The notes under the pieces were generated by a model that made no database searches, was not told the DNA's origin, and saw only the letters and a list, made by a program, of their open reading frames with translations. A DNA stretch of 29,793 nucleotides from a virus (lineage: Duplodnaviria; Caudoviricetes), in the IMG/VR virus record IMGVR_UViG_3300032312_000744, positions 1-29,793 of that record; one strand, written 5' to 3'. Position 1 is the first letter of the stretch; each line of letters starts with the position of its first letter. This document shows positions 4,119-26,417 of this stretch, piece after piece. Position numbers and translations under genes: made by a program.

Positions 4119-4472
4119 ATGTCAGAAAAGATAACACTACCTTCAGGCGCAACTGTGACTTTGAAGGACCCTAAATCTTTACGCGTCAAAGATCGCAAGC
4201 GCGTGTTGAAAACAGCAGATGTTGAAGGCGGAGATTTAACTCGAGCCTTAGCACTAGGCGATGCGTTGATTGCGATGTTGATTGAGGATTGGTCGCTTGA
4301 CCTCTTGATCCCCGCACTTAAGATCGACAACCTCGATGAATTAGAAATGAAAGATTACGATGCTTTGGTTGACGCTACAAAGGATGCGCAGAAGTTTCTG
4401 TTCCCTTCTTTGGGCGATACAACCGAGAATGAGCAAGACCCAAAAGCGGGTACCGACAACTCGAACGCTTAA
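4119..4472 (+). CDS. Tail assembly chaperone (gpG-like)
   Basis: RBS AGGAGG; follows the tail tube; ends just after the slippery site C CCA AAA. Confidence 0.85.
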   Translation: MSEKITLPSGATVTLKDPKSLRVKDRKRVLKTADVEGGDLTRALALGDALIAMLIEDWSLDLLIPALKIDNLDELEMKDYDALVDATKDAQKFLFPSLGDTTENEQDPKAGTDNSNA

Positions 4473-4663
4473 GGTGGTGGCTTGAGGGTGGCGAGCGCCG
4501 ACCTGATTTAGATTACCCCGATGAGGAGTGGTACTACTTTCAGTTCGCCGATCGCTTTGGATGGACACCCGCGCAAGTGGATGATCTACCCGCAGGGACC
4601 GCTGATTGGTTGTTGGGAATAGCAGCAACTGTGACTAAGATGCAAAGCGAGGTGCGTGATTGA
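4439..4663 (+). CDS. gpT-like extension of the tail assembly chaperone reached by programmed -1 frameshift (gpGT = 4119..4663)
   Basis: The X XXY YYZ site CCCAAAA at 4439-4445 is in the chaperone frame. The -1 frame reads PKSGYRQLERLRWWLEGG...FADRFGWTPAQVDDLPAGTADWLLGIAATVTKMQSEVRD*, with no start codon of its own near the 5' end. Absent from the ORF track. Confidence 0.85.
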   Translation, partial: PKSGYRQLERLRWWLEGGERRPDLDYPDEEWYYFQFADRFGWTPAQVDDLPAGTADWLLGIAATVTKMQSEVRD

Positions 4664-15137: not shown

Positions 15138-15414
15138 AAAACGACTCACACCCGAGGAACTGCACGCTCGCCTAATAGTTACTATTGGGATTCTACTTGC
15201 GTTGGTATTTGCAGGATCGGTCTTTGCCATGCTTTACGCTCTGGTATTTGTGACCCAACCCATGTCGCAAGCCCCAAACGATGCCGCTTTCATTGATCTT
15301 GTCTCGACACTTTGCGTCTTTCTGACTGGCACGCTTTCAGGCATCCTGAGTGCAAATGGGTTAAAATCTAAACCAAAGCCGAAGGAGGGTGAAGTCGATG
15401 AGCCAACGCGATGA
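15130..15414 (+). CDS. Two-TM membrane protein (holin-like)
   Basis: Start probably at MSRKRLT (15130); two hydrophobic helices and a charged C-tail. Confidence 0.65.
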   Translation: MSRKRLTPEELHARLIVTIGILLALVFAGSVFAMLYALVFVTQPMSQAPNDAAFIDLVSTLCVFLTGTLSGILSANGLKSKPKPKEGEVDEPTR

Positions 15415-15913
15415 GTTAGTGGCGGTTGCACTTAAAGAAGTGGGAACGATCGAAGGACCAAAAGATAACGAAACTAAGTATGGCGCATTCACAAAGGCTA
15501 ACTTTCTGCCCTGGTGCGGATCGTTTGTAATGTGGTGCGCAAACCAAGTCGCGCTCAAGATCCCGAACTGCGTATCAACTCAAGCGGGGGCCAAGGCATT
15601 CTTGGATAAAGGTCAATGGCAAGCAGCCGAGGAAGCGACACCGCTACCTGGCGACATCGTTTTCTTTGACTTTCCAGGAGATGGGATTGACCGCATTTCC
15701 CATGTGGGCATCGTTGTTAAAGACAACGGCAACGGAACAATCACCTGTGTTGAGGGCAATACCAGTCCCGACAAGAAGGGCAACCAAAGAAACGGTGGCG
15801 AATGCTGCCTAAAGGTTCGCGCTTACAAGAAAAAGAACGGAAGCAAGTTAGTCAAATCGCAGCCTGTAGCAATTGTGGGCTTCGGTAAACCAAAGTTCAA
15901 GGAGACCAAATGA
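15398..15913 (+). CDS. Endolysin, CHAP-domain peptidase/amidase
   Basis: PWCGSFV (catalytic Cys), PGDIVFF, SHVGIV (His), EGNT. Confidence 0.9.
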   Translation: MSQRDELVAVALKEVGTIEGPKDNETKYGAFTKANFLPWCGSFVMWCANQVALKIPNCVSTQAGAKAFLDKGQWQAAEEATPLPGDIVFFDFPGDGIDRISHVGIVVKDNGNGTITCVEGNTSPDKKGNQRNGGECCLKVRAYKKKNGSKLVKSQPVAIVGFGKPKFKETK

Positions 15914-16152
15914 ACGCAAAGTTAAAAGCAGCACTTGAGTCATACGCACGATCCTTCGTGGTTGCGGCCATCGCCGTCTACTCAACAGGGGAAACCGATC
16001 TGAAAGCCATCTTGATTGCTGGCTTAGCCGCAGTTGCTGGCCCAGCGATCCGCGCTATCAATCCAAAGGACCCAGCGTTTGGCTTTATTGCCAACGCGGT
16101 TGATGTTGAGATCAAGGCGCTTGCTAAGAAGTCCAAAAAGAAAATCAAGTAA
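15910..16152 (+). CDS. Holin (r1t-like)
   Basis: Two short TM segments and a basic C-terminus, immediately after the endolysin; RBS AAGGAG. Confidence 0.7.
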   Translation: MNAKLKAALESYARSFVVAAIAVYSTGETDLKAILIAGLAAVAGPAIRAINPKDPAFGFIANAVDVEIKALAKKSKKKIK

Positions 16153-24424: not shown

Positions 24425-24603
24425 ATAACGCACCAGTTTATCGCCGCCGCAGGTTTGTGGCGTTTGTAGTAATTCCAGCGGTTGTGCTGGGCTTGTTAAT
24501 TAGTTACGCAACACGCGATCTTTGTTATGTGGGGGCCGAACACGGCAACGCAATGGGCTACGGCTCTTGCAGCGCCATGATTGATCGGGTGGTGGGCAAA
24601 TGA
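24421..24603 (+). CDS. Small single-TM membrane protein
   Basis: YRRRR followed by a hydrophobic helix; two external Cys. Confidence 0.65.
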   Translation: MNNAPVYRRRRFVAFVVIPAVVLGLLISYATRDLCYVGAEHGNAMGYGSCSAMIDRVVGK

Positions 24604-24827
24604 GTCCAGGCTTTAGCATGATGGGGTCGGGCATTTATTCGGAGGAGGTGGACCGAGAAATTGTATGCGCCGAGCGCTGCGAGTCTTGTTCGGATGAAGG
24701 CAAAACCTGCGATGCGGTGTGGGAGGAGACTCTTTCAACAGATGACTGGGGCAATATCGACAACGATGTGAAGTGCGAAAAGTGCGAACACACAATTAAT
24801 TACAAAGAGGAGAGGCATTATGACTGA
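24600..24827 (+). CDS. Acidic Cys-rich (Zn-binding) hypothetical protein
   Basis: CAERCESC...C...CEKCEH. Confidence 0.65.
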   Translation: MSPGFSMMGSGIYSEEVDREIVCAERCESCSDEGKTCDAVWEETLSTDDWGNIDNDVKCEKCEHTINYKEERHYD

Positions 24828-25041
24828 AATCTACGAATACATGATCCAGGTGGTTGAGGATGGGGCTGTAACTTGGAGCCGCCGCTTCGACAACGCCGTT
24901 GACGCAGTTCATACTTACGATCGCTTCACGGACTTTGGCTTTGCCAAGTGGCAGCGTGAGATAGTCCTGGTTGAGCCAAATGGAAGAGGACACGCGAAGG
25001 TGTTTGAAGGACCCCTTTCCAAGGCGCTCAAGGTAAAATAA
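24820..25041 (+). CDS. Hypothetical protein
   Basis: RBS GAGGAGAGG. Confidence 0.65.
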   Translation: MTEIYEYMIQVVEDGAVTWSRRFDNAVDAVHTYDRFTDFGFAKWQREIVLVEPNGRGHAKVFEGPLSKALKVK

Positions 25042-25074
25042 ACCGCTCCATTCCCGAACCGAGAGGAACTGAAA

Positions 25075-25164
25075 ATGGATGAAATGATCAATCGCTGCGC
25101 GTATGGTGCGTGGCACTATGGTGAAAAACTGTGCGAAGTCTGCCGAAAGGGGCGGATCGAGTAA
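25075..25164 (+). CDS. 29-aa Zn-finger-like mini-ORF (MDEMINRCAYGAWHYGEKLCEVCRKGRIE)
   Basis: RBS GAGAGGA; C-x5-H-x5-CxxC; same frame as the downstream transglycosylase. Confidence 0.55.
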   Translation: MDEMINRCAYGAWHYGEKLCEVCRKGRIE

Positions 25165-25605
25165 GCGGTTAAGACCCCGAAGCGAGTCCTCTTAGCAGCC
25201 GCGTTAGCGGTTGGACTCCTTGCAGCAACCTCCGCAGAAGCGCAAGCGCCGCATTTAAGCCAGGCACAGAAGGTAAAACAGATGTCGCCCAAGTCTTATG
25301 CGCTGATGAAAGTTGAGTCGAGGTGGCTCAATGCCAAGCGTGAGTTTGCCTGTTTAGATCTGCTGTGGCATAAAGAAAGCGGCTGGAACCACAAAGCCAG
25401 AAACCCGCATTCATCGGCCTTTGGCATTCCACAATTTCTCGACTCCACCTGGTTGAATTACAAGTATCCTTTGCGGCCTAAAGACCCGCAGGTGCAAATT
25501 GACGCGGGGCTTCGATACATTTACAAGCGTTACGAGACCCCTTGCCAAGCCTGGGAGTTTTGGAAACGCAAAGCAGGACCCGATTTAAGAGGAGGTTGGT
25601 ATTGA
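25165..25605 (+). CDS. Secreted lytic transglycosylase (SLT/lysozyme-like); true start unresolved
   Basis: CL..LW.KESGWN, SSAFGIPQ, QIDAGLRYI..RY..PC.AW. The frame is open from 25165 with a signal peptide, but the first ATG is at 25282. Confidence 0.82.
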   Translation, partial: AVKTPKRVLLAAALAVGLLAATSAEAQAPHLSQAQKVKQMSPKSYALMKVESRWLNAKREFACLDLLWHKESGWNHKARNPHSSAFGIPQFLDSTWLNYKYPLRPKDPQVQIDAGLRYIYKRYETPCQAWEFWKRKAGPDLRGGWY

Positions 25606-25694
25606 TGAGCATGGACTCTCCATTTGGCCTTCCTTTGCGAGTTGATCATCCAACCGTTGATCCCACCGAGTGGGATGACGAGGATGACGATTAA
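25605..25694 (+). CDS. 29-aa acidic micro-protein (MSMDSPFGLPLRVDHPTVDPTEWDDEDDD)
   Basis: RBS GAGGAGG; TGATG coupling. Confidence 0.55.
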   Translation: MSMDSPFGLPLRVDHPTVDPTEWDDEDDD

Positions 25695-26025
25695 GCAAAG
25701 CCTGGTCAATCTTGTTATTCAGAGAGCGGGCGGCTACTGCGAAACCTGTGGCCGACCCGCTTCTGAGTCTATGGCCCTGCACCATCGCAAGTTAAAGTCC
25801 AGGGGCGGCAAAGACTCCGCCAGCAACTTAATTTATGTCCACCACGAATGCCACAATCTTGGAACCGAGTCGATCCATTTGCGCCCTGCTTACGCAGCCG
25901 ACAAGGGGTGGATGGTTGGCTCTTGGGCCGACCCTGAAAACACGCCGATGCATTTACCTGACGGCCGCATTGTTTTATTACAAAATGACGGTAAGATTAC
26001 AGTCCTAGAGGGAGGAACAATATGA
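25684..26025 (+). CDS. HNH endonuclease
   Basis: CETCG...HHRK..SRGG....SNL...HHECH. Confidence 0.85.
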   Translation: MTIKQSLVNLVIQRAGGYCETCGRPASESMALHHRKLKSRGGKDSASNLIYVHHECHNLGTESIHLRPAYAADKGWMVGSWADPENTPMHLPDGRIVLLQNDGKITVLEGGTI

Positions 26026-26417
26026 GCATTCCAGTAACAATCAAAGGCAACTTGGGGTCTGATCCTGAATTGAAATATGTAAAAACAGCGCGTGGAGATG
26101 CGGCGCTTGTAACCTTTTCACTTGCGCACACGCCAAGAGAACGCAAAGGCGATGAATGGGTAGAGGGCGAGACGATTTGGTTCCGCATCACAACCTGGGG
26201 CGACAAAGGCGAAATTTATGTCGATGCGCTAAAGAAGGGCGACACCGTTCTTGTCCAGGGCAGCATGAAACAATCTACATTTAAGGGGCGTGATGGTGTT
26301 GATAAAACGGCTTTGGAAATCAACGCGACTGACATTGGTATCGTTCCCAAGATTATGCGCACTTCTGCATCTCGCGGTCAGGCTCAAGTTAGCAGAGCGG
26401 AAGCACCTGGATGGTAA
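26022..26417 (+). CDS. ssb: Single-stranded DNA-binding protein
   Basis: GNLGSDPELKY, WFRITTWG, LKKGDTVLVQG. Confidence 0.92.
   Translation: MSIPVTIKGNLGSDPELKYVKTARGDAALVTFSLAHTPRERKGDEWVEGETIWFRITTWGDKGEIYVDALKKGDTVLVQGSMKQSTFKGRDGVDKTALEINATDIGIVPKIMRTSASRGQAQVSRAEAPGW

Follow-up and report, generated by a model that had tools for sequence, protein, structure and literature searches.

The window analysed here, that is, the whole 29,793-nt stretch given by the IMG/VR record IMGVR_UViG_3300032312_000744 (29.8 kb, 77% complete), belongs to a tailed phage with terminase, tape measure, SSB, HNH and RusA genes, and carries a mini-ORF followed directly by the frame of a lytic transglycosylase that has no canonical start codon ahead of its predicted signal peptide. 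On the sequence itself, the mini-ORF starts with ATG at 25075 and ends with TAA at 25162-25164, the frame is then open to the TGA at 25605, no in-frame ATG, GTG or TTG occurs after the TAA before 25282, and the two complementarities and both copies of GCGGTT described for this junction in the original prediction are all present. The features of the region, in coordinates of the window, are as follows:

25034..25039, plus strand: promoter -10-like hexamer TAAAAT (putative), about 41-42 bases before the mini-ORF ATG
25061..25067, plus strand: strong ribosome-binding site of the mini-ORF (sequence and duplex energy)
25075..25164, plus strand: mini-ORF of 29 codons with a C/H-CxxC pattern, found upstream of the enzyme in 190/201 loci
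25145..25152, plus strand: distal SD-like run GAAAGGGG, located within the mini-ORF 10 bases ahead of its stop
25158..25161, plus strand: proximal SD-like bases, with G25159 nine bases before the candidate start
25162..25167, plus strand: TAA stop of the mini-ORF and 3-base spacer (sequence)
25168..25170, plus strand: candidate non-AUG start GTT; the homologous codon is non-canonical in 108/108 junctions
25171-25173, plus strand: AAG, the next codon after GTT, a less likely alternative start
25168..25242, plus strand: predicted Sec-type signal peptide (basic n-region, hydrophobic h-region, A-x-A; composition)
25168..25605, plus strand: ORF of 145 codons for the signal peptide and SLT-family lytic transglycosylase (PF01464)
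25184..25218, plus strand: bulged hairpin within the signal-peptide coding region (covariation, 45 representatives)

The enzyme matches Pfam SLT PF01464 (E 1.2e-6, 28.5 bits vs. a cut-off of 21.3) as well as a PHROG transglycosylase, and its E-S-x-W and G-x-x-Q motifs are invariant in 38/38 proteins, as is the glutamate (38/38) predicted to be catalytic, at 25375-25377; no relative was found by sequence among solved structures. The endolysin is a separate gene at 15398-15913 (PHROG matches) and is followed by a small hydrophobic holin-like ORF (region 15398-16152). Since the window thus has its own endolysin and holin-like ORF, we take the SLT gene not to be the main lysin, and it lies far from the lysis cassette, among small genes ahead of HNH and SSB. 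The habitat-labelled metagenomes with matching DNA are freshwater and the named relatives of the enzyme are from actinobacteria and their phages; hence, the host is probably actinobacterial, and the product would be exported by Sec and would cut the peptidoglycan of this host. Among isolated phage records the best match was 51.5% over 66% of the query, with no family member among the best 40 of 272. Elsewhere in the window, a tail-assembly-chaperone-like ORF (4119-4472; region 4119-4663) has the heptamer C CCA AAA at 4439-4445, where slipping to -1 would add 74 codons and close the gap up to TTG 4660; this we take to be the ordinary programmed frameshift of long-tailed phages. RNA reads of one run covered the window at 25557-25700 only, the junction lying outside; two further RNA runs contained only small shares of it.

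A trivial explanation for the lack of a start codon would be an indel or assembly error, for which we found no sign, the junction being shared by independent contigs. Specifically, one assembly (which may be of the same source) spans the whole stretch with 0 differences, the junction is also covered by contigs from two other studies, without an indel among the differences listed there, a metagenome contig whose protein is 99% identical has the same stop and the same GTT, and five close viral contigs have the stop and likewise no start codon. The matching junctions in viral and metagenome contigs therefore rule out assembly error.

Homologous loci were gathered by the enzyme, by the mini-ORF, and by two patterns that cover the junction or its flanks while leaving the candidate codon unspecified; pattern matches encoding no SLT were dropped (1/37 and 9/27), and 51 of the 131 loci of one collecting step were left out of the set. 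The catalytic motif was located in 201 of 210 loci (the other 9 were dropped), and the 190 of these with a mini-ORF gave 109 distinct junctions; of the 11 without, nine are cut by contig ends and two are distant homologs. The set of 108 junctions also used below joins the earlier loci to the later scans, with a shorter key for distinctness, and in a single locus (L207) the anchor was moved by hand from AGG to ATA. Alignment of these homologous phage loci showed the start-less signal peptide behind a mini-ORF to be conserved, as anticipated. Every junction retains the n-, h- and c-regions in the frame of the enzyme, with at least one K/R in codons 2-6 in 106/109, a mean h-region hydropathy of 2.78 (minimum 2.07) and A-x-A in 99/109; the hydrophobic stretch, whose lack of conservation would have counted against the original prediction, is thus conserved.

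At the position homologous to GTT 25168-25170, six codons before the h-region, the 108 junctions have ATA (39), CTG (39), GTT (24), ATT (3), TTT (2) or ACG (1), and ATG, GTG or TTG in 0/108; that is, close homologs do not have the normal start codon that a recent mutation in the window would imply. The codon is one mismatch from ATG in 82/108 (ATA, CTG, ATT, ACG) and GTT or TTT in 26/108, bearing in mind that this near-cognate set was defined only after the data were seen and that the sequences are related. In the set of 109, the position has 5 codon forms vs. 24 and 17 at the flanking codons, its leucine is CTG in 47/47 (gene-body share 0.11) and its isoleucine ATA in 34/36 (gene-body share 0.25), and ATG/GTG/TTG make up ~19% of the L/I/V/F/M codons in the gene body. 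The constraint appears to be likeness to ATG rather than a hydrophobic residue, since L385, a true SLT locus (E 4e-20), has ACG (Thr) there. A tree from a short alignment of the mature enzyme (120 columns; long branches, related sequences, possible recombination) requires at least 11 state changes among candidate codons, none to ATG/GTG/TTG, and the codon-unspecified scans returned 36 and 18 family loci, all non-canonical, many of which overlap earlier contigs. A few observations count against the candidate codon, however. The AAG that follows it in 73/109 junctions is also one mismatch from AUG and could serve as the start in some lineages, and 15/109 junctions contain a canonical codon in frame ahead of the h-region (TTG two codons on in 8, GTG four codons on in 1, far upstream in 6), which some lineages could use. 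Further, non-AUG starts in E. coli reach 1-2% of AUG for CUG, AUA, AUU and AUC, and 0.1-1% or less for other codons; GUU and UUU fall outside the four stronger near-cognates, the value being that of the group and not per codon (10.1101/063800), and this weakness counts against the candidate start as well.

The lack of a canonical start is a property of this gene family and not of phage SLT genes generally. A canonical start precedes the hydrophobic N-terminus in 22/24 other phage SLT genes, assessed by eye (30/120 control loci had a short closed frame, and 24 of these were SLT-like), so that the feature was not seen as a general habit of such genes; canonical starts are also found in the cellular homologs (29 loci, by eye) and in the other genes of the window (56 ORFs checked). 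The leader-hairpin cassette was absent from the 29 cellular loci scanned, and a search of GTDB for prophage copies gave only distant homologs (8 loci; 73/121 genomes of one order). A distant homolog in an actinobacterial MAG (L231:2965-2990, and L229) has a GTG start and no leader, and its upstream region shares nine letters, GAGTAAGCG, with the stop region of the window, by chance or as a shared ancestral binding site. Another phage SLT (L313) has a stop just before the mature region and no start before it in the stretch examined, and two loci of the same type (L286, L319) have an intact TTG-led N-terminus.

The mini-ORF stop lies within -1 to +7 of the candidate codon in 108/108 junctions, as found by a script that searched this range only, an earlier unlimited count having given the same offsets (start minus stop: +6 in 64, -1 in 26, +5 in 8, +2 in 6, +7 in 2 and +3 in 2). 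Thus, the stop overlaps the candidate start or stands within a few bases of it, as would be expected for termination-reinitiation. The shapes include 26 four-base overlaps of the ATGA type (A-TAA, A-TAG, C-TGA) and six one-base overlaps of the TAATG type, the two types that dominate coupled gene pairs (PMC10666635, in the part available), and we count this similarity for a termination-coupled start. The stop shares the frame of the signal peptide in 66 junctions and is shifted to -1 in 40 and to +1 in two, with at least nine frame changes on the mature-enzyme tree and a one-base spacer difference even between close relatives (L023/L085 vs. L086/L183).

The mini-ORF has a codon-position entropy of 0.95 at third positions vs. 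0.23 and 0.30 at the others (58 sequences, partly picked by synonymous pattern). Its peptide, which has no Pfam or PHROG match, bears metal-type residues (C, H, C, C in the window; four Cys in many relatives) and may bind zinc, as this pattern suggests. The leader position appears to outweigh the zinc finger, because three loci (L398, L400, L406) have lost the Cys motif (one Cys) and kept a 20-codon ORF with its stop overlapping ATA (A-TAA), and we regard the mini-ORF as likely to be a ribosome-delivering leader. The -10-like hexamer upstream, with T, A, A (fourth) and T (sixth) invariant in 45/45 representatives (chosen to be less than 90% identical) and TAAAAT in 30/45, would act as a promoter and suggests one small transcription unit. 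RNAalifold predicted 0 pairs in the promoter/mini-ORF region (45 sequences) and no Rfam family was found, and a conserved structure or riboswitch upstream was rejected on these grounds.

Ribosome-binding potential was scored as mean duplex energy with an anti-SD motif. Over the 45 representatives, the mini-ORF ATG has its energy minimum at -13 (-7.2 kcal/mol), and in the family profile the candidate codon has its minimum at the same -13 (-4.8 kcal/mol) and a second one at -21; a G stands at -9 from the candidate codon in 106/108 junctions, whatever the stop offset. The shared register and the G at -9 count for a start at this codon. Hence, the family has an SD-like site at normal spacing, which is weak in the window: the proximal bases give -2.5 kcal/mol there (counted against the candidate), and the distal run GAAAGGGG, at -6.9 kcal/mol, is the strongest SD-like site there. 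With the proximal site weak and the distal one strong, fresh initiation at GTT seems unlikely and a hand-over from the leader is favored.

The original prediction placed an H-type pseudoknot just after the stop, with a first stem (25168-25174 with 25190-25196), a second (25184-25189 with 25213-25218) and an alternative pairing of the GCGGTT copies with 25197-25202. A selected RNA structure is indeed found there, although not that one: the second stem and the alternative stem together form a covarying hairpin, whereas the first stem did not hold up. In the hairpin, the outer stem (25184-25189/25213-25218) and the inner stem (25197-25202/25207-25212) enclose a 7-base bulge (25190-25196), and its pairs are formed in 92.8% of 559 cells, with 50 two-sided changes; 0/500 shuffles reach this value and slid partners are 24-48% paired. 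RNAalifold finds the hairpin unaided, and its stability exceeds that of synonymous recodings in 45/45 representatives (mean z -2.1; a control segment gave -0.58); the window's own fold, with z -1.49, is not beyond chance. On the tree, twelve changes on each side of pair 44/74 collapse to 14 pair changes, while the outer pair 41/77 has no joint changes (3+3 vs. 6). The bulge includes an invariant A (25194), the third position of codon +8, which is A in 109/109 junctions over six different codons. By comparison, the first stem is 61.3% paired vs. 59.3% when shuffled, two of its pairs are broken in 30/45 and 35/45 representatives, and its 18 two-sided cells (10.4 shuffled; 2/500) come mostly from one pair. 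A covariance model, which is not a pure structure test because it scores the coding sequence too, found six held-out family loci, 18 more and one place in the window, and hit 0/24 phage and 0/29 cellular control loci. Rfam gave no match below E 0.42 in 24500-26200 and 0 at gathering score in 8 relatives.

The distance of the hairpin is fixed to the candidate start, not to the stop. Counting the first base of the candidate codon as +1, the firm base of the hairpin is at +16 (+17 in the window), the position at which initiation complexes give a toeprint (+16/+17; PMC9841429, in the part available), and we count this coincidence for initiation at the candidate codon. In an E. coli screen, structure just downstream of the upstream stop correlated negatively with coupling (PMC12548453, in the part available), and the hairpin may therefore repress rather than help.

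We thus consider it probable that the leader terminates and that translation re-initiates with fMet at the adjacent near-cognate codon, with SD-like pairing behind and the hairpin ahead, giving an output that would be low and IF3-sensitive. Non-canonical re-initiation was one of three options in the original prediction and is the one that best fits the SD register, the geometry and the lack of a canonical start. Under this model, ribosomes would load at the strong site of the mini-ORF, translate the leader and terminate at the TAA, and the terminating ribosome would be handed to GTT 25168, 3 bases past the stop, where fMet-tRNA would read the near-cognate codon. The hairpin, at +16/+17, may hold or slow the ribosome with GTT in the P site, i.e., it would position or throttle the ribosome and may act as a brake, and the weak start would keep enzyme output low. 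In E. coli, both non-canonical starts and re-initiation without an SD are inhibited by IF3 (PMC2268962, in the part available). A bolder version, which we put forward only tentatively, is a start-codon-tolerant cassette in which the leader delivers, the hairpin backstops and almost any AUG-like triplet, GUU and UUU included, starts translation, the bulged A being a possible contact for a protein or the ribosome through which the export of this enzyme could be switched in the course of infection.

Alternatively, the same near-cognate codon might be used by fresh initiation on its own SD, with the mini-ORF an independent small protein and the hairpin dampening the start or keeping it unpaired. 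The SD register is tied to the codon and not to the stop, the region upstream has no conserved structure for translation to open, and conserved non-canonical starts of S. aureus rely on strong SDs (PMC13009471, in the part available), all of which agree with fresh initiation; however, the proximal SD of the window is weak and the stop keeps its position in every junction, even where the Cys motif is lost, and we regard this alternative as rather unlikely. The downstream canonical codon at Met 25282, with the hydrophobic stretch a relic or a by-product of the hairpin, is the choice of gene callers, which start the enzyme there or at scattered internal codons, and the hairpin does constrain part of the h-region. 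Nevertheless, an ATG occurs at this position in only 32/109 junctions; in the stretch from the h-region to 15 codons ahead of the catalytic Glu, 28/109 have no ATG and 5/109 no canonical codon at all; and all three regions of the signal peptide stay in the enzyme's frame throughout, which makes a start at 25282 hardly credible.

A further alternative is readthrough in the in-frame lineages, or a frameshift or hop in the others, stimulated by the hairpin and giving a zinc-finger/signal-anchor/SLT fusion; readthrough and a -1 shift were the other two options given originally. Stimulators of readthrough usually take the form of a hairpin located 3' of the stop, 66/108 junctions are in frame, and database fusions exist in which Q stands at the stop (P0007, P0027). 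Yet, a single readthrough mechanism cannot serve the whole family since the stop occurs in all three frames; as a rule it is contradicted by the 42/108 junctions in which the signal peptide is out of frame with the stop and by the close relatives that differ by one spacer base. Moreover, most of the stops are TAA, in differing 3' contexts, and the confinement of one codon to near-cognates would be left unexplained. The proposed -1 shift from the +1-frame ORF finds a slippery heptamer into the enzyme frame in 1/109 junctions, with the ATG-led +1 ORF reaching the stop in only 67/109, and stop hopping or bypass was rejected, with take-off and landing codons matching at two bases in only 11/109. 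A recoded genetic code or suppressor tRNA was likewise discarded, as no tRNA is encoded in the window and TAG ends other genes. Three full-length fusion proteins with Q in place of the stop (P0007, P0027, P0122) probably stem from gene calls with TAG read as Q, the simpler explanation because P0027 equals locus L008 at 149/150 residues with the sole difference at TAG, and no DNA with a Gln codon at the stop was found (0 matches each for the P0027 and P0007 patterns). Overall, we find recoding of this kind very unlikely. Only slightly less doubtful to us than the downstream start, and still most improbable, is that the codon is made AUG-like after transcription, or that start checking is relaxed by phage or host (through low IF3 or a changed initiator tRNA), either of which would turn the gene on at a defined point in the infection. 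This would explain the very weak codons GTT and TTT, and excess IF3 inhibits non-canonical initiation (PMC2268962, in the part available); however, no single base change makes ATG from ATA, CTG, GTT, TTT and ACG (A-to-I editing of ATA, for instance, cannot cover CTG, GTT, TTT and ACG), the window has no tRNA, and the phage's other genes and the cellular homologs are canonical. Hence, we favor re-initiation at the near-cognate codon after termination of the leader.

In gammaretroviruses, a pseudoknot 3' of the stop stimulates readthrough, and the phage junction resembles such sites in that a stop is followed by 3' RNA structure; unlike them, the stop is in frame in only part of the junctions (66/108) and varies in frame and identity, two interlocked stems are not conserved (no second stem interlocks with the hairpin), and the distance is set by the candidate start. 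Downstream hairpins that aid initiation are known in eukaryotes, e.g., the alphavirus downstream loop. Eukaryotic Kozak-effect hairpins that aid non-AUG starts also have a stable stem one ribosome edge downstream (PMC13270972, in the part available), although that effect concerns scanning 40S subunits and the effect of the candidate phage hairpin could be repressive. A natural bacterial or phage case of initiation aided by such a hairpin was not found in full-text literature searches, which covered few subscription journals. The start in phage fr is UUG, and coupled pairs, fr and MS2 included, use AUG, GUG or UUG, unlike the candidate start. As in the coat-lysis coupling of fr and MS2, a wall-active product is tied to termination of an upstream ORF through short overlaps or gaps (PMC12548453, PMC10666635, in the parts available); in MS2, however, control comes from RNA structure that covers the start site, whereas at the junction studied here no conserved structure is seen around the candidate start, and its hairpin is placed beyond the ribosome footprint on the 3' side. 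Closer parallels for the codon are infC and pcnB (AUU) of E. coli and ccpN (AUA) and cvfC1 (AUU) of S. aureus, where selection-kept weak starts lower or condition output (10.1101/063800, PMC13009471, PMC5499595) and a near-cognate codon is likewise conserved where the protein must begin. Unlike these AUU/AUA genes, the phage family swaps six codons, including GTT, TTT and ACG, and, unlike the S. aureus starts, which have strong extended SDs and give about 10-30% of AUG in reporters (PMC13009471, in the part available), the window has a weak SD, an abutting upstream ORF and a downstream hairpin. The SLT enzymes of actinobacteria and of Streptomyces and Gordonia phages share PF01464, E-S-x-W, G-x-x-Q and the signal peptide, but the relatives examined start with ATG, GTG or TTG and are without the leader-hairpin cassette. 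The cassette, conserved bacterial GUU/UUU starts and non-AUG SLT genes of freshwater actinophages were not found in full-text literature searches (few subscription journals covered), and the parts available of PMC10202952, PMC13515050 and PMC9094748 do not mention the cassette.

In bacteria, a handful of genes are known to have a conserved non-canonical start, mostly AUU or AUA. In this phage family, six codons interchange, a canonical codon never appears in 108 junctions, and a covarying hairpin stands at the leading edge of the ribosome. If our model is true, the family would offer a natural series (six codons, six spacings, one hairpin) for testing re-initiation after termination, and also whether downstream structure can place ribosomes, and GUU and UUU would be added to the natural start codons. 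Finally, with a non-canonical start, gene callers truncate the N-terminus of the protein, and databases would then contain a class of secreted phage proteins whose entries lack the signal peptide.
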